Below, piece after piece: positions 51,535 through 64,000 of a stretch of DNA of 64,000 nt (position 1 is the first letter of the stretch; the number at the start of each line of letters is the position of its first letter). This DNA comes from an uncultured Chloroflexia bacterium (GTDB taxonomy: Bacteria > Chloroflexota > Anaerolineae > CG2-30-64-16), in contig CAVZDU010000010.1 in the NCBI GenBank assembly GCA_963774265.1, positions 64,001 through 128,000 of the forward strand, in the 5' to 3' direction. The notes under the pieces are model-generated. The model ran no database searches, was not told the DNA's origin, and saw nothing but the letters and a program-made list of their open reading frames with translations. Made by a program: the position numbers and the translations under genes.

Positions 51535-52638
51535 CTATCCCCCATGTGTGCTACCCCGTGCCGTGATGCTTCGCAGCGCATCGACCAGCACGTCCACGCC
51601 CTGCATCCACTCGGCAATCTCGATGTGCTCTTCGGGCGTATGGTCCAGCCGGCTGTCTCCCGGCCCGTAGGCCAGGATCTGGCAGCCCCAGGCCGGCCCC
51701 ACCACGTTCATGTCGCTCGTACCCGTCTTGTTAAGGAAGACCGGGTCCCCACCGTGTGCGCGCACGGCGGACACGAACGCGCGCACCAGGGGTGTGTTCT
51801 TCTCCGCCCGGTACGCCTGCTCTTCGCCGCTGAAGCGAAACGCGCCGATTCCGTCCGCGCTGATGAGCAGTCGCTTCATCACGTCCGGCGCCAGGCTCGG
51901 CGGCAGGCGGAAGCCCATCCGCATCTCCGCCGTCTCCAGCATCCCGTCATCGCCGGAGCTGAACTGTCTCAGCGATGCCTGCACCTGGTCCCACGCCCGG
52001 CTGTAGCCCGTGTTGAGTTCCTCCACCAGCTCCTGCACCCGTCGCCAGTAGTTGAATGCCAGTTCCGGGGCCCCCGCTGCGGGCCCGGCTGTATGCGACA
52101 TCATCCGTTGGAACTCCACGTCGGCCAGCAGCCTGCCCTTATAGCCCAGGGCTACCCGCTCCCATCCGGTAGGTTCTCCGATGATGCATAAGTCGGGTCG
52201 CCTTCGCGCCGCCAGATGCCGCGCACCTTTCGAAGTCGTGCTCTCTTCCTCGACCGCGCCGGCCACCACGATGCGCCACCCTGGCTGCGGCCCGAGCAGC
52301 GCGGCAGCCGTAGCGAAGGCAGCTAGCGGCCCCTTGGCATCCACCGCGCCACGGCCATAGAGCCGGCCGTCGCGCTCCGCGATCTTGGGGAAGCCGCGCA
52401 CGGTGTCAATGTGTCCGAGGAGTATGATCTCGCGCACGGGCCCTGCGCCCGAGCATTCGAGCACGCCGACCGCATTACCTGCGCCATCACGATGGGCTGA
52501 GAAACCGTGCGCACCGAGCCAGGTGATGAGGTGACACACTGCGGGCATCTCCTGGCCGGAGGGCGAGCGGATCGCCAGTAGCTCGCGCAGCAGCGCCAGG
52601 CCGTTGTCCGTAGTTTCTTCGATAGAGGAAGAAGACAT
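51535..52638 (-). CDS. lysK: [LysW]-lysine hydrolase
   Basis: M20 motifs GHIDTV, GRGAVDAKG, VEEE, GEP, KTGTSDMN, YGPGD..LDH; operon context. Confidence 0.92.
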   Translation of the reverse strand: MSSSSIEETTDNGLALLRELLAIRSPSGQEMPAVCHLITWLGAHGFSAHRDGAGNAVGVLECSGAGPVREIILLGHIDTVRGFPKIAERDGRLYGRGAVDAKGPLAAFATAAALLGPQPGWRIVVAGAVEEESTTSKGARHLAARRRPDLCIIGEPTGWERVALGYKGRLLADVEFQRMMSHTAGPAAGAPELAFNYWRRVQELVEELNTGYSRAWDQVQASLRQFSSGDDGMLETAEMRMGFRLPPSLAPDVMKRLLISADGIGAFRFSGEEQAYRAEKNTPLVRAFVSAVRAHGGDPVFLNKTGTSDMNVVGPAWGCQILAYGPGDSRLDHTPEEHIEIAEWMQGVDVLVDALRSITARGSTHGG

Positions 52639-52651
52639 GCTGACCTCGCTC

Positions 52652-53827
52652 CTAATCTGCGAACACTGCCTCGGCATGGCTGCGGCCTTCGTCTCGCGCC
52701 GCAGTCGCCCGAACGATATCGCATACTGCTGCCGTCACCTGGGCGGTCGTCGCCATGCCACCCAGGTCGGGCGTGGTCAATCCCGCCTTTACCGTTGCCC
52801 GCACGGCTTTGCGCATCAATGCCGCCGCCCGGGGTTCACCGACGTGCTCCAGCAGCATCGCCGCGCTGACGATCGCGCCCATCGGGTTGGCCACCCCGCG
52901 GCCGGCAATATCGGGGGCGCTCCCGTGAACCGGCTCGAAGACCCCCACCCGGCCATCGCCGACATTGGCCGACGGTGCGACGCCCAATCCTCCCACCAAC
53001 CCGGCTGCCAGGTCCGATAGGATGTCACCGAACAGGTTGGTCGTGACGATCACGTCGAAACGGCTTGGATCCCGAACCAGCCACATGGCGGCCGCATCCA
53101 CGAGCACTTCATCGACCTCGACGTCGGGATAACCTTTCGAGACGGCCAGGCAGCTCTCCCGAAACAGCCCATCGGTCACCTTGAGCACGTTTGCCTTGTG
53201 CACGATGGTGACTCGCGGACTTGCTCTGCGTCCTCGCGAACCAGCCCCGGGTCCGCTTTGCGTGGTTTCACGTAGCATGGCCCGCCTGCGTGCCTGCTCG
53301 AAGGCTACCTGGGCGATGCGCTCGCTGGCCTGCCGGGTGATCACCCGCTCGGCAATGGCGGTGTCACCTTCCCTGCGCTCGCGGCCAGAGTACAGGCCTT
53401 CGGTGTTCTCGCGCACGATCAGGAGGTCGATCGGGCAGCCGTTGGGGGCCAGAGGCGACGCGGGACGCAGGTTGGCGTAGAGATCGAACTCCTTACGGAG
53501 CGTGAGGATAGGGCTGCGGTAGATCGCGGGCCTGCCGCCGCTTTGAGGGGATAATCCACGTGGGTGCCCGCTATCGCCATCGCGCAGCGTCCGTGTGGGA
53601 CTGCCGGTTGTCGGCGACTGCGTTGCGCCGAAAAGCGTCGCATCAGTCCCACGCACGGCCTCAACCGTCTCCTGGGGCAGGGCGGTTCCGCTGCGGATGA
53701 AGCAATCCCACCCGGCCTGTGCAGTGACAAAGCGCGTGCCTGGTAAGGCGGTGGCAATCACCTGTGCCGCCGCCGGCACCACCTCCCGGCCAACGCCATC
53801 GCCGGGTATCAGACAAATCGTATTCAT
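52652..53827 (-). CDS. Homoisocitrate dehydrogenase
   Basis: [51 protein letters not shown]; lys operon context. Confidence 0.88.
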
Positions 53828-53859
53828 CTCAGGCCTCCGCCATCCTCAATCTGCAATCT

Positions 53860-54423
53860 TCAATCTTCCATCGCTGATCCGGTCGCGGCCAGGCCCTTGA
53901 GCATGGGCAGCAGACCGCCAGCCTGGAAAATGGCAGCAACCGATGGCGTGAGCGGCGGAAAGGGGAATTCGCCGGCAGCGCAGCTTATGACGCCACGGTC
54001 CAGGTCGACGGTAACGGGCTCTCCGGGTCGGATCACCGTAACCGCCTCCGGACAAATCACCGGCAGGAGGCCGTTGTTGACGGCATTACGGAAGTAAATT
54101 CTCGCGAAAGATTGCGCAATGATAACCCGGATTCCCGCAGCGCGCAAGCTCGTCACAGCCTGCTCGCGGCTGCTACCGCACCCCCAATTCCGCCCTGCGA
54201 CAATGACATCGCCCGCTTGCACCCCTCGCGCAAAAGCCGGATCCAAGTCCTCCAGCGCATGTTGCGCCATTTCCGCCTCATCCTTGATGGTGTAAGTATA
54301 TTTGCCCGGGAAAATCACGTCCGTGTTGACATCATCCCCGTAAACCCAAGCCTGTCCCACCATCGAAGATTGCAGATCGAAAATTGAAGATTGGCCTTCC
54401 GCAGGATTCTCATGGTCGTTCAT
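53860..54423 (-). CDS. lysU: Homoaconitase small subunit
   Basis: [30 protein letters not shown]. Confidence 0.88.
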
Positions 54424-55790
54424 AGCGCTTCCTCGCCACCTGATCTTCCTTCTTCCATCTTTCTTCCTCCTTCTTCCATCAACTCCTCCGGTCCCCCGAT
54501 CCTGCCGAGCACCGCACTCGCAGCGACCACCTGGGGGCTGGCCAGGTAGATGTTCGCCTCCGGGTTTCCCATTCGGCCCCTGAAATTGCGGTTGGCCGTG
54601 CTGATCACCGTCTCGCCCGCAGCAGGCACACCGAGGTGGTTGCCCATGCACGGCCCGCATCCGGGAGTCCCCAACATCGCCCCCGCTGCCAGGAACGTCT
54701 CCACGTAGCCGGCAGCCAGGCCGGTTTGCAGTACCTCGCTGGATGCAGGGATGACGATGAGCCGGACACCCTGCGCCACCTTGCGCACCGCGCCATTCCC
54801 TCGCCGCAACACGGCCGCCGCTGCTGCCAGATCCTCCAGACGGCCGTTCGTGCAGGTGCCGATGAACGCCTGGTGCACGGGCGTCCCCGCCACCTCGGAA
54901 AGCGGTGCGACATGGGCCGGGTGATGGGGTATGGCGACTGCCGGCTCCAGCGCTCCCAGGTCAACAGCCAGACGCTGCGAGTAGGGTGCATCCTCGTCAG
55001 GATAGAGCGCTCCTGCCGCCAACCATTGAGAGCATTCTTCTTGCGATCTCCCGGTGCGCTCTCGGTTGTCGAGCCTCTCCGCCAGCCACGCGAACACCGC
55101 CTGGTCCGGCTCCAGGTATGCGTTTTTCGCACCCGACTCGGCCATCAAGTTAGGCAGGACCATCCGACCCTCGACGCTCAGCGATCTCAGCCCGGGCCCG
55201 CCGAACTCCAACGCCCGGTAGATCCCCGCCTCAGGACCCAGACGCTGGAGCAACCATAGCCCCAGGTCCTTTGTGGTGACCCACTGGCCCAGCGCGCCGG
55301 CCAGATCGACGCGGATCGTTTCAGGCACGCGCAGCCAGAGCTCGCCGGTCGCCCACAATGCGGCCACCTCGCTCCGTCCGATGCCTGCGCCGAATGCGCC
55401 CAGCCAACCGAAATGAGTCGTATGGCTGTCGGCGCCCAGGATCATTTGACCCGGCAGCACCAGCGCCTCTTCGCTCACCACCTGGTGGCAGATGCCTCGA
55501 CCCGCATCGTAAAAGTGCGCAATCTCCTGGCTGGCCACAAAACGACGAGCCTCGGCGTGATTGGCCGCGTGCTCGGCGGTTGGCGGGGGCACGGCATGGT
55601 CCAGTGCGATGGCCAGCCTCTCAGGGTGCTTCACCCGTTCGATCCCAAGGCTCGCGAACAGGCGGGCAATGGCTGCCGTATTGTCGTGGCTCAGCACCAC
55701 GTCCGGCCGTGCATCCACGATCTGTCCGACCTCGACGTGCGGCAAACCGGCCGCCCTGGCCAGCGCTTTCTGCGCAAAAGTTGATCCCAT
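54420..55790 (-). CDS. lysT: Homoaconitase large subunit
   Basis: SHDN, DH, GICHQ, DSHT, GTCTNGR, CGPCMG, STANRNF.GRMG. Confidence 0.9.
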
Positions 55791-55841
55791 CCCGCTGCTC
55801 CGTTTGCCCTATTTTTCGTGCGCCTTGGTGATCCTGATATC

Positions 55842-56999
55842 TTAGTGGTTCCCGTTTCCGTTCCCGTTGCCCCAGTTGCGCAACAGGTTGTCGACGTCGT
55901 CCAGGCTCAGGGCCCGCTCGTCGGCCAGCACCTTGATGTGCTGCGTGAGCGCCTTCACATGCGTATCGGACAGCGTCAAGCCGAGTTGATCTGCCCTGGC
56001 CCGGACCGCGTTCCAGCCGGTCAGCCTGTGCGCGATTGAGATATAGCGGGTGAGACCGAAGTCGTGTGGATCGAGCGCCTCGTAAGTCTCGGGCGCGTTC
56101 AGGATCGCCTTCGCGTGAATGCCCGCCTTGTGAGTGAATGCACTGAAGCCCGTGATGCAGTTGTTGAACGGGATGTCGACGTTGATCATCTCGCCGACCA
56201 TCAGCTCGAGCTTACGCAGTCGGTCGAGCCGATACTTGGCCGCCGTCGCCTCGCGATCGAGCGTGACCATGCGGGCAACGAATCCGCCCAGGGGGGTAAT
56301 GCCGTTCCGTTCCCCAATGCCTAACACCGTCGTGTCTATGTGAGTCGCGCCGGCTTCCAGGGCTGCGTGGGCATTTGCGATGGCGCAGCCAGCGTCGTTG
56401 TGCCCATGGAACTCGATGTCGCAGTGGGTAAGCCGCCGTAGCGTTCCCACGAGCCGTCCTACCTGTCCCGGCGTTGCGATGCCCACCGTGTCCGCAATGC
56501 CAAGCCGGTTCACCACGCCCAGCCGGTCGACTGCCAGGTACACCCGCAAGAGCTCGGCTTCTTCGCTGCGGAACGAGTCCTCAGTGCTGAACCTCAGCTC
56601 CACGTCGGGCGCTTGTTCCCGAATCCACGGCAGGACTTCTGATGCCAGGTCGATGATCTCGTCGATACTTTTGCCGTGACTAAACTGGCGGAGTTTGGAC
56701 GAGGTTCCAATCACGACGTCAACGCCATTGACCCCGGCATCAAGCGCCACTTTTGCATCGTCGCGGTGGCATCGGATGTGGGTCAGGATGCGCGCCCGCA
56801 GCCCCAGTCCGGCGATCGTCTGCAAGTCGGCCAGGCTTCCCGGCGACGCCTGGGGCGAGGTCAGCTCCAGGTATTCGACGCCGAACTCATCGAGCGCCCG
56901 CGCGATCGCGATCTTCTGCCCGGTCGAGAATTGCGCATTGATGAACTGCTCCCCCTCGCGGAGGGTGGAGTCGATAATCGCATAGTTGTCGAGTGACAC
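55842..56999 (-). CDS. hcs: Homocitrate synthase
   Basis: [45 protein letters not shown]; GTG start after a purine-rich RBS (ATG at 57029 also possible). Confidence 0.93.
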
Positions 57000-57025
57000 A
57001 AGAACCTCTCCTCTCGAAGCCAGTT

Positions 57026-58331
57026 TCAATTAGAAGGAAGAAGGGAAAAGGAAGAAGCAAGATCTTCCATTTTTCTTTTTTCTTCTTCCGTTTTTCGTAC
57101 GGGCGCCAGCGCCTCCGCCAGTGCGGCGACAACCCTCTCCAGGTCTTCTTCCCCGATCACCAGCGGAGGCAGCAACCGCAAGACCGTCATCCCGGCCGGC
57201 AGCGCCAGCACCCCCAGGGCCTGCAGTCGCTGCAACACAGGGGTCACCTTTACCTTCAACTCCACGCCGACCATCAGCCCCAACCCGCGCACCTCGCGCA
57301 CGAGCGGCACACGGAGCGCCGCGAATCTCGTCCATCAGGTGTTCGCCCAACCGCGCTGCCCGACCTGGCAACGTTTCGCCCGACCCTGGGGCCGGGTATT
57401 CGCTTGTCAGTGCATCCAATGCGGCCAGTGCGGCCGCGCACGCCAGCGGATTCCCGCCGAAGGTGCTGCCGTGGCTCATCGGCGCCAGAGTGCCCACGCG
57501 CGGCCCGATCATGCACGCGCCCATCGGTAGGCCGCCCGCCATTGATTTCGCGACGCAGAGCAAGTCCGGGACCACGTCGAAATGCTCGCACGCGAATAAC
57601 CGCCCCGTCCGCCCGAATCCCGTTTGCACCTCGTCCAGGACGAGCAGCGCCCCGCGTTGCCGGCATAGTTCTGCCGCCGTTTGCAGATACTCCCGCCGCG
57701 CAACATGCACGCCGCCCTCGCCTTGCACCGGCTCCAGCAAAACGGCAGCCGTTTCAGCCGTCACAGCCGCCTCCAGGGCGGAGAGATCGTTGAACGGAAC
57801 GTGGCTGAAACCCGGAGTGAGCGGTGCAAAAGGCCGCCGGTACTCCTCTTTCCACGTGGCCGACAGCGCGCCCATCGTTCTCCCGTGGAACCCGCGGTTT
57901 GCCGCTATGATCCCGGGCCGGCCAGTCGAAGCCCGCGCGAATTTGATCGCTGCCTCGACCGCCTCGGTCCCCGAATTGCACAGGAAGGTTCGGTCCAATC
58001 CTGGCGGTGCGACCTGCGCCAGCCGGTGCAGCAAGGCCACGCGCACGTCGTTATGAAAGGTTTCCGGGCAGGTGATGAGTTGGCCGGCCTGTTCGGTGAT
58101 CGCGGCCACGACCGCGGGGTGACAATGGCCCAGGTTTGCCGAACCCTGCCCTGCCACGCAGTCGATGTACTCGCGCCCTTCGGCATCCCATACGTGCGCG
58201 CCCTGTCCGCGCACGATGGCCACCTGGCGCTTCGGATACACGCCGGAGGTGTGGCTGGCCTCGGTCTGGATGATCTCCGCTTGACTCCAAACGACCTCGC
58301 TGGTTTGTGCGAAAGTCTGTGCGAGCATCAT
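57026..58331 (-). CDS. lysJ: [LysW]-aminoadipate semialdehyde transaminase (frameshift near 57320)
   Basis: [43 protein letters not shown]; VRGLGLM...LRLLPPL in the shifted frame. Confidence 0.92.
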
Positions 58332-59200
58332 CGGACCTCCACGAGGGCGGTCGCCATGCGTGCTGTGATTTCGGCCATCTCAAACCCGAGCTCGCCGATC
58401 ACCGTTCCCTCGCCCGCAAGCGCAGCCCGAACGGGCGTGGCCCGCCGCGAATCGGCCAAAATCACGCTGCGCACGTTTCGGTCCAGCGCCTCGCGCGCGG
58501 CCAGCACCTTCTTTTTCATCCGTCCCTGCGCCAACAACTCCACAGCCCTCAGGTGGGCCGGGTCCACGTGGCGCAACAGGCTGCTCTCGTCCGGGAAGTC
58601 GGCCAGCAGTCCCGGCACGTTGCTGAGGATGACCAGTGCATCCGCGTTGAGCGCCCCAGCAAGCATTGCCGCCGCCCGGTCGCCATCCACGTTGAGCCGT
58701 TCGCCGCCCAGACCCAGGGCTAGTGGTGCGACCACAGGCGTGTACCCGGCGCGGAGCAGCATGTCGAGCAGGGCGCCATTCGCCGCTTCGATTTGCCCGG
58801 TGTAGTCATCGCGAATGATGCGTTGGCGACCGTTCTCGACGGCTCGCACCGCGTCCTTTCGCCTGGCCACCAGCAACCGTCCGTCTACGCCAGACAGCCC
58901 GAGTGCGTTGCATCCCATCCGCTGCAACTCGGCGACCAACCCTTTATTCACCCCACCCGCGGCGGCCATCACATAGATATCGAGCATCGATGGATCGGTG
59001 TACCGACTGACGTGTCCCGATGGGGACGTGATATGCCGCACCGGTGCACCCAGGCGCTGCGCCAGCCCATCCGCAGCCGCCGATGTCCCGTGCACCAGCA
59101 CCAGGGGCCACCCCTCAGCAGCCAACTCCGCCACATCCGCGAGGACGGGCGCGGGTGTCACCCCGGCTGCTCCGCCCAATTTCACAACGATCGGATTCAT
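58328..59200 (-). CDS. lysZ: [LysW]-aminoadipate kinase
   Basis: VVKLGG, VHG, SRYTD, NVDGDRAAA, GRMKKK. Confidence 0.93.
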   Translation of the reverse strand: MNPIVVKLGGAAGVTPAPVLADVAELAAEGWPLVLVHGTSAAADGLAQRLGAPVRHITSPSGHVSRYTDPSMLDIYVMAAAGGVNKGLVAELQRMGCNALGLSGVDGRLLVARRKDAVRAVENGRQRIIRDDYTGQIEAANGALLDMLLRAGYTPVVAPLALGLGGERLNVDGDRAAAMLAGALNADALVILSNVPGLLADFPDESSLLRHVDPAHLRAVELLAQGRMKKKVLAAREALDRNVRSVILADSRRATPVRAALAGEGTVIGELGFEMAEITARMATALVEVR

Positions 59201-59212
59201 CGAAAGCCTCCT

Positions 59213-60265
59213 CTAGACCGGATGGATCCCCGGGAAACCTAGGCCCAACGTTTCATCCCATCCAAGCATCAAGTTCATGCACTGCACGCCTGACCCCGCC
59301 GCGCCCTTGCCCAGGTTGTCGATGGCGGCCAGCGCCACCAGGCGTCCGGTCGCTGCGTCCAACTCCCACCCGACATCGGCCAGGTTCGTTCCGGCCAACA
59401 GCTTGGGCTCCGGGTGTCGATAGATGCCCCCGCGCTCGTGGACGATCCGCACGAAGGGTTCCTGCCCGTACGCCGCCCGGTACGCACGCCAGACGTCCTT
59501 GTCGGTCAGACCTGGGCCAACCCACGCGTGTGCTGTGGCCAACACCCCGCGCACCAGTTCGATGGACGTCACCGATAGATACACATCCTCTCGCCCCATC
59601 ACCTGTCGCACTTCGGCCTCGTGCCGGTGCCCTGTCGGCGCGAAGGATCGGACCACGCCCGCGCGTTCCGGATGATGCGATGCCGCGCTGTGCGTGGCCC
59701 CTCCTTCCGACGAACCCGCTTTGACGTCGATCACAAGGGGGAGGTCCGTGCGCAGCAGCCCTGCCCTCGCCAGTGGCAGCAGGGCCAGATTTGCCGCCGT
59801 CGCGTTGCACCCCACCCCGCTCACGAACGTCGCGCCGCGGATCGCTTCGCGATTGATCTCCGGCAGACCGTAGGCGAAGCGCGGAAGGAAGTCGAGAGCC
59901 GCGTGGTCTGCTCCGTAAGTGCGGCGATACAGTTCTGGATCAGTGATGCGGAAGTCTGCGGAGAGGTCGATGATGCGAGGAGCTAGTGAGGTTAGTTGCA
60001 CGATCCGGCGCTGCGCTTCCCCATGTGGTAAGGCCAGGAAGAGCACATCGCACGGCGCCAGTTCGCTGAGTGAGGTGAAGCGTTGGGGTGGGCGGCCGCC
60101 GGTCGGCCGCAGGTTCGGATGCACGCTGTGAACGAGGTCACCCGCGTGAGATTCCGATGTGACCTGCCCGATCTCGATGTGCGGGTGTGCGGACAGGAGC
60201 CGGATCAACTCACCGCCGCCGTATCCCGATCCGCCAACGATAGAGACAGTGGTGCGGTCGCTCAT
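59213..60265 (-). CDS. lysY: [LysW]-aminoadipyl-phosphate reductase (ArgC-like)
   Basis: [36 protein letters not shown]. Confidence 0.93.
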
Positions 60266-61116
60266 TCTGAACCCTCCACCATCCTCAGTACATACCGCAC
60301 CACGTGGGCGGGGATATCCACGCCAGTCGTGTGGATGCTGTTGCGGAACTCCATCGTATGGTTAATCTCATTCACCAGGAATCCTCGCTGCGGGTCTTCC
60401 AGTACATCGATCGCCAGGACGCCCCCGCCCACAGCTTGCGCCGCGTCCCGACACAAAGCATCCAGTTCGGGCGTTACCGGGCAATTGCTCGCCTCGCCGC
60501 CTTTCGCCGTGTTTGTGATCCAGTGTGAAGACGCCCGGTAGATTGCACAGATCGTCTCGTCACCCACCACAAACGCCCGGATGTCCCGGCCGGGCTTGGC
60601 GATGTACTCCTGGATGTAGAAAATGCTGTGCTGGTACGACCCGAGGACGTCCTTATGCTCCAGCACGGCCTCAGCTGCGTCGCGATCGTTGATTCGCGCC
60701 AGCAGCCGTCCCCACGAGCCGACCACCGGTTTCAGCACCACGGGGTAGCCCATTTCCTCGATGGCCTGGATCGCCGATTCTGGCGTGAATGCCACGCGCG
60801 TCTCCGGCTGCGGCACCACGGCCTGGGCCAGCGCCGCGGTCGTCAACAGCTTGTCCCAGCAGGTGGCCGCGGTCTCGTAGCGGTTTACCGTAGGGATGCC
60901 CGCTGCGCCGAGCAACCGCAGCGCATAGATGCCACGTGCTGCGCTCAGCGAGCGTTCCAGCACCACGTCGGCCTGCACAGCACGGGGACCCCCAGGTCTG
61001 AAGATCAGCTCCTCGTCATTGACCAGCGTCACATCCGCGCCGGCCGCCTCGAGCGCGGCCAACAGCAGCTTTTCTTCCACGCGGATGCGCGAGGCGATCA
61101 GGGCAACGCGCGTCAT
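60262..61116 (-). CDS. lysX: Alpha-aminoadipate--LysW ligase (ATP-grasp)
   Basis: [43 protein letters not shown]. Confidence 0.95.
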
Positions 61117-61283
61117 TCTCCCCAATCCTCCTGTTCTTCAGGTGCAAGTTCGAGCGTCAGTGGATCGAGCGCAATCACTTCCAGATCAGCGCCGCACGCC
61201 GCGCACGGCACAATTTCGCCCTGCAGCGGATCACGCAGGACGACCGGGCCTTCACATTCAGGACAGAGTGCTTCGAGTACCAT
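61113..61283 (-). CDS. lysW: Amino-group carrier protein LysW
   Basis: CPEC...CAAC zinc ribbon and C-terminal EDWGE; GGAGG RBS. Confidence 0.95.
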
Positions 61284-61336
61284 GATTGAATCCTCCGAAT
61301 TTGGTAGGGGCGACGAGACGTCGCCTGTTTCCACCT

Positions 61337-61374
61337 AACAAAAAGCCCCCTCCGCCAACCGGGCGGAGGGGGCT
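61337..61374 (-). terminator. Attenuator 2 intrinsic terminator
   Basis: 13-bp stem AGCCCCCTCCGCC-CGGTT-GGCGGAGGGGGCT followed by TTTTGTT, in the operon leader. Confidence 0.9.
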
Positions 61375-61404
61375 GCAAACGACTTAGGGGTGCGCGCAAG
61401 CGGC

Positions 61405-61470
61405 CTATCCAGACCTCCAGTCCGGCAAGCTGATCATCTTCTTGACCGTGCGCTTTGTCTTGAGCAGCAT
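61405..61470 (-). CDS. Lys-rich leader peptide 2: MLLKTKRTVKKMISLPDWRSG
   Basis: GAGGAG RBS, ATG at 61470, four AAG codons, TAG at 61405, upstream of terminator 2; translated by hand. Confidence 0.8.
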   Translation of the reverse strand: MLLKTKRTVKKMISLPDWRSG

Positions 61471-61484
61471 GTGTTTCTCCTCGG

Positions 61485-61524
61485 CAAACAAAAAGCCCCG
61501 CCTGGCGTTGGCCTGGCAGGGCTT
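61485..61524 (-). terminator. Attenuator 1 intrinsic terminator
   Basis: AAGCCCTGCCAGGC-CAAC-GCCAGGCGGGGCTT stem (one mismatch) followed by TTTGTTTG. Confidence 0.85.
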
Positions 61525-61549
61525 CTGGTTCTTTAGGGTTCTGTCTGGA

Positions 61550-61627
61550 CTACCCCAAGCGCCAGTGGCCGTCCCTGCAGGCCAGGGAAAGCTTCTTGGA
61601 CTTGGAGCGCTTGGACAGAGTCATCAT
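61550..61627 (-). CDS. Lys-rich leader peptide 1: MMTLSKRSKSKKLSLACRDGHWRLG
   Basis: GGAG RBS, ATG at 61627, four AAG codons, TAG at 61550, upstream of terminator 1; translated by hand. Confidence 0.8.
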   Translation of the reverse strand: MMTLSKRSKSKKLSLACRDGHWRLG

Positions 61628-61643
61628 GTGAGCTTGTTCTCCG

Positions 61644-63672
61644 TTACGATGGCGGCATTATACCGGCATCTCTCAGTAAGTCAAATCGCGAATAGGCGGG
61701 AAGGCGTTGCGCCACCAGGGCGATCAGCGTATCTCTGTAGCGAACCCCTTGCTCCCATTGCATGCCCGGCGACGTAGTCCGGCGCTCCAACTCATTGCGT
61801 CCGAAGATCGCGCTCGACACTCAGGCCCAAATCCTGGAGCAACCCGGCCAGTAAGTCGGCCGCAGCATTCATCTGCGCTTCCGTCGGCGCGGCCAGATCA
61901 AAATCCCCCGCGAGCGCCACTGCCACCCCATCTGCATCCACCGCAGCCAGCCGGGATTGGTTGACCCTCGCTTCAAGCCCCTGCGTCTGGTATGTCATTC
62001 CGTTGCCGGCGATCAGGTAGTGGTAGGCGATGCCCGTTCGACCACGCCTGATCTGCCGTCGGGCCAGCTGGGCAGGCGTCACATCTGCGGGTGTCGCAGT
62101 GTGGTGGATGATGATGCGGCGGATGTCACTCAGGGGCCGTTTTGGAGCGACTTTCGTCGCCAGCCGATCCATCTCCTCGCGAACATCCTGCAGGGTAGTG
62201 GCTTCGAATTCCCGCTCGATCGCCACTGACTCCACGCCGCCACCGGTCTCGGTTTCGAGGTTGTTGGCCTGCACCAACACCTGTGCTACCGCCTGTTTCG
62301 CCTTCGCCGCCTCGGCCCTCCGCCCTTCCAGCGATGCCAAACGTCCCTGTGCGCTGGCGATGTTCGCGCGTAGCGCATCCAGACCCTGAACCGTCGCCAG
62401 CAGGATGGTAACCTGTTGACGTAACGCAGAGATCTGGTTGCGCACCTGGGCCGCGTCGACGTTCGTCCCGGGCGACGGGTCGTTCAGCGCGGTCTCCAAC
62501 CCCAGCAGCCGGTCGAGCAGGCCTCGAACCTCCTGTGCCGTCGGTCCTGGCGCGGCAGTCTGGCCCGCGGCTGCCAGAGCGGCGCGCGCCTTCTGCAAAT
62601 CGCCGGTAAATGCGTCTGCCTGGCCGGCGGCCGTTCTCATTGCCGCCTGCACTGCAGCCACCCGGGCCCGCAGGTCTGTCTGTGGGTCTGAGGATGTCGG
62701 CGTGGGCAGCGGGGTCGGGGACGGCGTGCTTGACTCGCGCAGCGTTGCGATCTTGTCTATCAACAGGATTGGCTTTTGATCGTTGTCCTTCCCCAGGTGA
62801 CGGAACGTCTCCCACAACCCCGAGTGGCCCACCTGGTACAGGCACGCGCCCATCAGGTAGTCATCTACTGTCATCTGTGCGTTGTACCACTGCAGCGACT
62901 CCCAATACTGGGTCTCGGAGATGGCCTCTCCCGGGTATAACCAACCCACATCACCCGCCGGGTCGTTAGAATGGCGATACATGCGTGCCAGGCCAGCTTC
63001 TGTGATGATCACCTTGTGTTTGTTTCCGTGGCGTTCCCGGATGCCCTCGAGCAGGGTGCGATATAGCAGTGCGGCTGTGGCCGTCTCTGCCTTGGACATG
63101 AGCGTCGGCCACCCGTACTCGTGGAAGCCCAGGTAGGTGTAGGCCGCGAGGGAGCGAGGGAAATGGGCGACGACCTGATCTTTCGCGACGAAGTTGCCGG
63201 CCGCGAAGTTGAATGCCACACCCTCCAGGCCATCCGATCGCATCCGTTCGAGGAATGCGACTTGAAAGCGATCGAGCGCATCGTAGCGCGCCAGCGTTTC
63301 GGCGTCCGGCTTCCAGTCAAGAAAGCTTGCCGGCCCCCTGACTGGCTCATTCAGACTCATCCACGCGTCAATCAGCAGCCGGCCGTTGGCGCCCTTCTCC
63401 TTGGCGAGCTGGAAGTCGTGGTTGATGACGTTCTCGGCCAGTGTGCGGCCTGCGCCTTCCGGGTCGCCGCCGGTCAACCAGGCCGTCTGCTGGGGCAGGT
63501 CAACAAACATACGGCCAATAACGAAAGTGTCGGGCGAAAGCGTATTGCGGATATCACGCAGTAATCCCCGATCCCCCACATGGATGAGCAGCACCGGCGG
63601 CTTAACCTTGGCGAACGCTTCGCGCAGGAATTGGACGGTCGTGTTTTCGACATAGAATCCCAGCTTATTCAC
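61644..63672 (-). CDS. Multidomain protein: GH-A-like TIM barrel, coiled coil, Amidase_2/PGRP-like domain (frameshift near 61810)
   Basis: LNEP, GFHEY, IITEAG; IIIHHTA, IAYHYLI; the shifted frame continues IFGRNEL..TTSPG to TAA at 61644; GTG start. Confidence 0.7.
61657..61684 (-). promoter_or_regulatory. Sigma70-type promoter of the lys operon leader
   Basis: TTGACT-16 bp-TATAAT. Confidence 0.75.
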
Positions 63673-64000
63673 GGACCTCACCCCTTTCTGCGCTCGGCTC
63701 CGGCACGAAAACCTTCGGCGGCGCTCCGTCACCCCCCGGCATCTGCCCGGGACCCCACATCTGCTCCCGTAGTGATGCTGAGTGGGAGGTGCTGGGTCCT
63801 CCTTCTTCCTTTTCCCTTCTTCCCTTATCATCGGGCGTCTGCCAGTCCTCAGGCATCGTCCATTCATCCGGGAAGATAACCTCATCTAGCCCTTCGTAGA
63901 CCTCAAGGATCTCTTTCGGCGCCATGCTCGCGGGCTGGGCCGGCGCACCGGGCCACGGAGTGCCCTTCGCTGCCAGTTCATCGAGCATGCGCTTCGTATC
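63665..64000 (-). CDS. 3' end of a gene starting beyond the window, function unknown
   Basis: Open frame whose stop overlaps the downstream GTG start. Confidence 0.5.
   Translation of the reverse strand, partial: DTKRMLDELAAKGTPWPGAPAQPASMAPKEILEVYEGLDEVIFPDEWTMPEDWQTPDDKGRREKEEGGPSTSHSASLREQMWGPGQMPGGDGAPPKVFVPEPSAERGEVRE

Follow-up and report, generated by a model that had tools for sequence, protein, structure and literature searches.

The stretch of DNA analyzed here, which we call the window, is 64,000 nucleotides (nt) long and comes from an uncultured Chloroflexia bacterium (assembly GCA_963774265.1, contig CAVZDU010000010.1, positions 64,001 to 128,000). On its minus strand, a leader of about 350 nt precedes a set of genes that begins with lysW and that reads, from its protein family matches, as a ten-gene operon for lysine synthesis by the aminoadipate pathway. 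After lysW come lysX, lysY (an argC-like reductase), lysZ (the [LysW]-aminoadipate kinase), a lysJ-type transaminase and homocitrate synthase, and the operon ends with the large and small subunits of homoaconitase, homoisocitrate dehydrogenase and lysK (the [LysW]-lysine hydrolase). Since separate argJ and argB genes lie on another contig of the genome, the operon looks dedicated to lysine. The leader itself contains two successive units, each made of a short upstream open reading frame (uORF) with lysine codons and an intrinsic terminator. We propose that these units are probably two ribosome-mediated (leader-peptide) transcription attenuators in series, both sensing the supply of lysyl-tRNA.

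Layout of the leader

An earlier note on this DNA, made from the letters alone, had listed a promoter, two uORFs with four AAG codons each, two terminators, a ribosome-binding site and lysW; all of them lie on the minus strand where it had placed them (Table 1). The promoter is the only promoter-like site in a scan of 60900..62100, in which shuffled sequences give 0.3, and it stands ahead of uORF1. The same scan found no promoter-like site between the two units, nor the separate promoter that might have stood between terminator 2 and lysW. Thus, the two units are arranged in series. From the U-tract of terminator 1 in the window genome, it is just 18 nt to the Shine-Dalgarno sequence and start codon of uORF2. 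Terminator 1 was skipped by a strict terminator pattern scan because its stem holds one internal mismatch.

The composition of the two uORFs sets them apart from the coding sequence around them. Lysine accounts for 8 of their 46 codons, as against 64 of 2969 (2.2%) in eight neighboring genes, and all eight lysine codons are AAG, as against 38 AAG and 26 AAA in those genes. Folding of the 331-nt leader gives z = −5.12, a value that none of 100 shuffles equaled. When 60500..62500 was compared with Rfam 15, no family reached its gathering score, the lysine riboswitch and the His, Trp, Thr and Leu leaders included; the top match on the leader was NsiR1, at 27.9 bits under a gathering score of 39. 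Covariance models of the units, R1 for unit 2 and R2 for unit 1, found one copy of each in the window genome and no others.

Table 1. Elements of the lysW leader and adjoining genes in the window
Feature	Position	Strand	Remarks
Gene upstream of the leader	61792..63885	(−)	697-amino-acid protein
Promoter, sigma-70-type, TTGACT-16-TATAAT	61684..61657	(−)	11/12 consensus matches
uORF1 (leader peptide 1), MMTLSKRSKSKKLSLACRDGHWRLG	61627..61550	(−)	25 codons plus stop, four AAG
uORF1 AAG codons	61612-61610, 61603-61601, 61597-61595, 61594-61592	(−)	
Anti-antiterminator of unit 1 (segments 1:2)	61614..61555	(−)	Minimum-energy fold
Unit-1 outer helix	61614..61607 with 61562..61555	(−)	
Unit-1 inner hairpin, TCCCTG/CAGGGA	61588..61572	(−)	
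Antiterminator 1, 5′ strand, TGGCCTGCAGGG	61584..61573	(−)	Partner: terminator 1 5′ arm, 61520..61508
Intrinsic terminator 1	Hairpin 61522..61495; U-tract TTTTTGTTT ending 61486	(−)	−21.7 kcal/mol
uORF2 Shine-Dalgarno, GAGGAG	61482..61477	(−)	6 nt ahead of ATG; canonical
uORF2 (leader peptide 2), MLLKTKRTVKKMISLPDWRSG	61470..61405	(−)	21 codons plus stop, four AAG
uORF2 AAG codons	61461-61459, 61455-61453, 61443-61441, 61440-61438	(−)	
uORF2 local hairpin, CCGGAC/GTCTGG	61425..61409	(−)	Ends 2 nt before the stop codon
Intrinsic terminator 2, TTTTTGTT	61374..61337	(−)	13-pair stem (11 G-C), 5-nt loop; −28.8 kcal/mol
lysW Shine-Dalgarno, GGAGG	61296..61292	(−)	
lysW, first structural gene	61283..61113	(−)	TIGR01206, 60.9 bits, cut-off 53.2
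Remaining operon, nine genes	61116..51535	(−)	NCBIfam matches

Conservation within the family

We examined the leader in the window's own Anaerolineae family (coded f1; f22, f39, f41 and f46 are other families of the class). Thirty f1 loci were obtained, numbered with an L as are those of other families; 28 of them contain lysW, and L020 and L026 end at contig edges. A pattern scan of a species collection returned 23 stretches, every one a duplicate of these loci. The leader DNA finds a match in 31 of 36 other f1 genomes, compared with none of 24 genomes drawn from 24 other families of the class. The promoter, as TTGAC(A/T)-16-TATA(A/C)T, occupies the aligned position in 28 of the 30 loci scanned; in L027 it is lost to the contig end, and L028 gave only a poorer match nearer the uORF.

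Both units are maintained across the family. By script, which counted as a unit any uORF with three or more lysine codons and a terminator after it, 23 of the 28 lysW-bearing loci hold two units. Two more, L028 and L030, have a uORF2 with just two lysine codons that was read from the alignment, which brings the tandem total to 25/28; the loci whose uORF2 has two or more lysine codons side by side likewise number 25 of the 28. The three exceptions are L014, in which uORF2 is interrupted by an insertion, and L022 and L027, which are without uORF2. All three keep terminator 2, which is present in 28/28 lysW loci of the family. The insertion in L014 (G018) measures about 81 nt, has inverted repeats at its ends and resembles a miniature mobile element.

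The uORFs are conserved in the manner of short reading frames. uORF1 is found in 29/29 aligned loci with the in-frame core K-x-x-K-S-K-K, and its AAG codons are invariant and in one frame with the start codon (ATG or GTG) and the stop; its N-terminal part varies in length among loci. Insertions and deletions in uORF1 are multiples of three in five of the six sequences that have any, and 3-nt deletions occur in two clades; in L029, a 1-nt insertion brings the stop earlier. For uORF2, the AGGAGAAACAC-ATG is invariant across the eight genomes of the window's genus, all of which keep three to four lysine codons, the two upstream ones being fixed. In four genomes, 2 nt are deleted past the hairpin loop and the frame runs on to a stop that lies 8 nt farther downstream; one genome has a 3-nt deletion. 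Since the hairpin is retained in spite of these changes, the tail of the peptide appears to be free, and it is the hairpin and the position of the stop that are kept.

RNA structures of the two units

The structures of unit 1 were scored on an alignment of 29 sequences (A1) as the percentage of cells paired, with slid controls as the comparison. The hairpin directly after the Lys-Lys codons (the inner helix) is paired in 98% of cells and the outer helix over the lysine codons in 83.6%; combined, they reach 91.2%, against 37-49% in the slid controls. The outer helix is the pairing of CCAAGCGC, over the Lys/Arg codons, with GCGCTTGG that the earlier note had picked out, and it belongs to the minimum-energy fold. 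Terminator 1 is paired in 100% of cells (slid controls 34-59%).

Antiterminator 1, which joins the 3′ half of the hairpin and its loop to the 5′ arm of terminator 1, is paired in 96.1% of cells (slid controls 13.5-58.7%). Its duplex was also compared with shuffles of the terminator arm, 300 per locus. In the window genome the duplex has −24.4 kcal/mol and 0/300 shuffles are as good; across loci the mean z is −4.08, and at most five shuffles are as good in 28 of 29 loci, the remaining one, L006, having 28. The pairing of TGGCCTGCAGGG with the terminator arm that the earlier note had named therefore beats shuffles. Unit 1 shows hardly any covariation because both strands are almost invariant, and such near-invariance is what overlapping constraints lead one to expect. 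We regard the predicted antiterminator of unit 1 as well supported.

Unit 2 was scored on 23 sequences (alignment A4). The region of its lysine codons pairs with a stretch that follows the stop codon, and together with the local hairpin of uORF2 this pairing covers 94.3% of cells (slid controls 12.7-43.5%), with 11 double-change cells, a number that 0/500 shuffles reach. The local hairpin itself is 100% paired with covariation (AU 13, GU 6, GC 4). Terminator 2 is paired in 79.6% of cells (slid controls 44-67%) with 14 double-change cells; this low figure arises because its arms align raggedly, and every sequence folds a strong hairpin alone. In an extended antiterminator 2, the hairpin, the stop-codon region and the post-stop stretch pair with the stretch preceding terminator 2 and with its 5′ arm. 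This structure is paired in 80.7% of cells (slid controls 24-55%), has no covariation, and appears in truncated folds of most genomes. The partial pairing that the earlier note had drawn in unit 2 is accordingly present in the truncated fold, and its failing, taken up below, is that in the window genome it is no better than shuffles. We consider a candidate antiterminator of unit 2 to be no more than moderately supported.

Related leaders in other families

lysW is present in 154 of 201 genomes sampled from the class. The region upstream of it was taken from 40 genomes of other families and scored by script and by eye. The full tandem occurs in three (L055, L060 and L061, of family f22), and a fourth f22 locus is cut by a contig end. 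Two loci of family f41 (L054 and L059) have uORF1, terminator 1 and a second terminator without a uORF; eleven have one unit of lysine uORF plus terminator; and in the remaining 23 of these 40 regions no unit was detected.

The covariance models extend this picture. R1 matches the single units of other families at 24.7-39.4 bits and gives a weak match, 15.3 bits with E 0.015, on unit 1 of the window. Strong R2 matches (E < 1e-12) are confined to f1, f22 and f41 among 151 genomes; beyond these families its matches are weak (E 5e-6 to 1e-2) and may be terminators or chance. In f22, 17 of 28 genomes have an R2 match, and 12 of the 14 loci that include lysW hold two units. In f41, a match is found in 4 of 18 genomes, and in all four the order is uORF1, terminator 1 and an orphan terminator 2. 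In six loci inspected by eye (L119-L122 of f41, and L022 and L027 of f1), a second strong terminator follows terminator 1 at a distance of 17-49 nt, and no lysine uORF intervenes; L106 was scored as an orphan terminator 2 by script only. The search upstream of lysW for one versus two units, which the earlier note had suggested, thus finds two in f1 (25/28) and f22 (12/14) and one in other families. Its claim of two complete leader-peptide attenuators in series draws support from this comparison, that is, from the conserved uORFs, terminators and promoter and from homologous units elsewhere.

Leaders of the same kind also precede other genes. Away from lysW, R1 matches lysine-rich leaders before homocitrate synthase in L095, L098 and L099; the homocitrate synthases of L098 and L099 score above the family cut-off, and that of L095 falls below it, yet its best match is that family. 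Two f46 genomes (L095, G081:C96; L096, G160:C285) have two lysine leaders, one before lysW and one before a homocitrate-synthase/homoaconitase operon. Upstream of argG-argH, the leader at L097:133-330 (G119:C4) has a uORF, MQLCFTRARRNRFRRPDHPSG, with 6 Arg among its 21 codons, and shows the hairpin at the stop codon and the post-stop pairing as in unit 2; the leader at L100:112-300 (G044:C168), also before argG-argH, has two adjacent Arg codons. Both seem to be arginine leader-peptide attenuators of the same RNA family. Since lysine leaders stand before lysW and homocitrate synthase and an arginine leader stands before argG-argH, the codons appear to change with the pathway on one scaffold. 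This match of codon type to pathway is the strongest indirect evidence that ribosomes may read the uORFs as sensors.

The scaffold consists of a hairpin whose end falls at the stop codon, a stretch beyond the stop that base-pairs with the regulatory codons, and a terminator. Six related leaders were compared with Rfam, and nothing but a tRNA reached a gathering score. A wider picture, which we offer tentatively as a real possibility, is that these leaders constitute an uncatalogued, modular family of attenuators in the Anaerolineae that is re-targeted by its codons and that through duplication gave rise, in two or more families, to a lysine checkpoint of two stages. Such a checkpoint would probe lysyl-tRNA twice, by two independent ribosomes, and its response would be multiplicative and ultrasensitive. 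Family f39 has something else before lysW. In L065, L069, L071 and L077, the last ~250 nt hold a different conserved leader with two successive terminator-like hairpins, and no lysine uORF was found in this f39 leader. It, too, matches no Rfam family.

A proposed two-stage mechanism

From the anatomy of the leader, its conservation, its alternative pairings and the codon-pathway match in its relatives, we infer translation of the uORFs, stalling, termination and a multiplication of the two responses, as follows. When lysine is plentiful, a ribosome would traverse uORF1, the hairpin after the Lys-Lys codons would sequester the antiterminator 1 strand, and terminator 1 would form; a ribosome placed at the stop of uORF1 leaves that hairpin intact in the masked fold. 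When lysyl-tRNA is short, the ribosome would stall on the AAG codons of uORF1 and cover the 5′ half of the hairpin. A stall at the Lys-Lys codons would place the ribosome 4 nt ahead of the hairpin. The freed strand could then pair with the 5′ arm of terminator 1, and polymerase would continue.

A second, new ribosome would next load on uORF2, 18 nt past terminator 1, and the test would be repeated. The lysine-codon region of unit 2 is predicted to be paired with the conserved post-stop stretch. A stall on the lysine codons would free this stretch, which could then, together with the hairpin around the stop codon, nucleate an antiterminator with the 5′ arm of terminator 2; a ribosome that reaches the stop of uORF2 would sit inside the 5′ strand of that antiterminator and block it. 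Because the operon would be transcribed only past both stages, the read-through probabilities of the two units, and with them both leak and response, should multiply.

A relay between the units was also considered, in which the freed 3′ arm of terminator 1 would pair with the 5′ arm of terminator 2. The complementarity is not above that of shuffles (mean z −0.06 for the 7 loci that were classed as having an orphan terminator 2, and −0.2 for the 39 classed as tandem), and we have rejected the relay for now.

Alternative explanations

Several observations weigh against a leader with two working lysine sensors. The Shine-Dalgarno sequence of uORF1 lies at least 11 nt from the start codon and is poorly conserved. 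Both antiterminators are conserved and do not covary, so that the sequence speaks for them indirectly. When a ribosome mask is laid over either the Lys-Lys codons or the stop codon, equilibrium folding retains the two terminators. Folding with the lysine codons masked, the check that the earlier note had put forward, thus gave a minimum-energy fold in which both terminators remain; therefore, any switch must be kinetic, a behavior on which such folds are silent. Truncated folds, in which the 3′ arm has not yet been made, have energies no better than those of dinucleotide shuffles of the upstream part, a test that does not discriminate, since the shuffles also pair 7-9 arm bases. The duplex of antiterminator 2 is weak, with a mean z of −1.83; only 8 of 25 loci have five or fewer shuffles, out of 300, that do as well. 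The window genome (L001) is at chance level, with 62 of 300 shuffles as good, and other loci of its genus give 75 (L002), 237 (L003) and 201 (L006). The Lys-Lys pair of uORF2 is also not fixed in the genus, where KK, EK, KR, RK and KQ are found. Lastly, in the six loci named above terminator 2 stands without a lysine uORF.

The last three of these points would be accounted for if only unit 1 sensed lysine, terminator 2 being an unregulated or weakly regulated fail-safe and uORF2, in this genus, the decaying remnant of a duplicated unit. Because terminator 2 can stand as a plain second terminator, this explanation stays alive. We nevertheless think it unlikely, since uORF2 keeps its invariant Shine-Dalgarno sequence and start codon and three to four lysine codons in 8/8 genomes of the genus and is retained by 25 of the family's 28 loci. 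The pairing of the lysine-codon region of unit 2 with its post-stop stretch covaries, and unit 2, not unit 1, is the more closely homologous to the single units of other families, which presumably work.

Alternatively, the two units may read different signals, for example lysine at unit 1 and lysine plus arginine, or general translation speed, at unit 2. A precedent for such integration is the leader of Salmonella mgtCBR, whose two leader ORFs read ATP and proline and act additively (Lee and Groisman 2012, PMC3641672). An Arg codon is kept beside the lysine codons of uORF2 (K-R), KR or RK replaces the KK of the window in some genomes of the genus, and the related scaffold with Arg codons precedes argG-argH in other families. 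These facts are set against others. Both uORFs are dominated by AAG, four codons each; the operon encodes lysine enzymes of the aminoadipate pathway only, argJ and argB lying elsewhere; and the conserved CGC belongs to the segment paired with the post-stop stretch and is thus explained by RNA pairing. A difference in signal between the units is thus improbable.

Least probable of all, indeed very improbable, is that the units are not attenuators and that the promoter and terminator 1 make a small RNA or a small lysine-rich protein, the terminators serving as insulators. In Sinorhizobium, attenuator RNAs that have been terminated, and leader peptides as well, are reported to act in trans (10.1101/606483, PMC7298713), and the terminated unit-1 RNA, structured and about 165 nt long, would be stable. 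However, the leader is always joined to lysW as the upstream gene varies, and each unit occurs just once in the window genome. In four genomes a 2-nt shift alters the C-terminal frame of uORF2 with the hairpin retained, and codon type follows the pathway of the downstream operon. Two lysine attenuators in series thus remain the explanation that we favor.

Relation to known systems

Leader-peptide attenuation is a textbook mechanism. The trp, his, thr and leu attenuators of Proteobacteria share with the leader described here a four-segment logic, in which segment 1 holds the regulatory codons, the 1:2, 2:3 and 3:4 pairings exclude one another, and the terminator is intrinsic; the window leader differs from them in amino acid, phylum and sequence family, and its unit is doubled. 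The nearest functional relative would be the leader peptide of the lysine (aminoadipate) cluster of Thermus thermophilus, which is reportedly a leader-peptide attenuator of one unit. By description, both have a short ORF with lysine codons and a terminator in the leader of an aminoadipate-pathway operon, and the logic is presumably shared; the Thermus leader, however, is one unit, whereas that of the window has two complete units and lysW as its first gene. Tandem T-boxes and tandem riboswitches that respond to one ligand are thought to sharpen or deepen the response. Synthetic tandem RNA attenuators, an engineered and artificial series arrangement, are said to be controlled by antisense RNA.

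Literature searches turned up neither an account of lysine leader peptides in Chloroflexota nor one of tandem leader-peptide attenuators for the same signal; many subscription journals lay outside these searches. Within the same bounds, they agree with the earlier note that the architecture has not been described for a lys operon. The sole natural case of "tandem attenuators" that they found is mgtCBR. There, too, the leader has two short ORFs, each governing transcription into the coding region, but the stem-loops do not resemble intrinsic terminators (PMC3641672). In contrast, the ORFs of the window carry the same regulatory codon, and each is followed by a canonical intrinsic terminator. 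In architecture, the closest analogues are tandem T-boxes and tandem riboswitches, which also place two sensor-plus-terminator units in series; double T-boxes are mentioned in PMC9413887 and the metE tandem riboswitches in PMC3641672. In these, the RNA directly senses uncharged tRNA or a metabolite, whereas the proposed sensor of the window leader is a translating ribosome.

The value of the feature lies in this series design and in the modular family of lysine and arginine scaffolds around it. If both stages work, the leader would offer a natural test case for three questions. First, it could show how serial kinetic checkpoints shape dynamic range and noise. Second, it could bear on origin by duplication, as its relatives have one unit, one unit with an extra terminator, or two. 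Third, it could illustrate the re-use of one RNA scaffold for lysine and arginine. The uncultured Chloroflexota, for which, to our knowledge, almost no cis-regulatory RNA has been catalogued, also gain regulatory annotation from it.

Adjoining sequences

The protein encoded upstream of the leader has a C-terminal Amidase_2 domain (N-acetylmuramoyl-L-alanine amidase) as its sole family match; compared with NCBIfam, it gave no match. Its homologue is present in just 12 of the 30 f1 loci. Since the upstream gene varies in this way and the leader stays joined to lysW, the leader travels with lysW. On the other side, the spacer between terminator 2 and lysW contains short tandem repeats, with units of 4-15 nt, in L009, L011, L017, L060 and L061. 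The longest run noted, of up to ~250 nt, is in L061 and lies ahead of the lysW ribosome-binding site.

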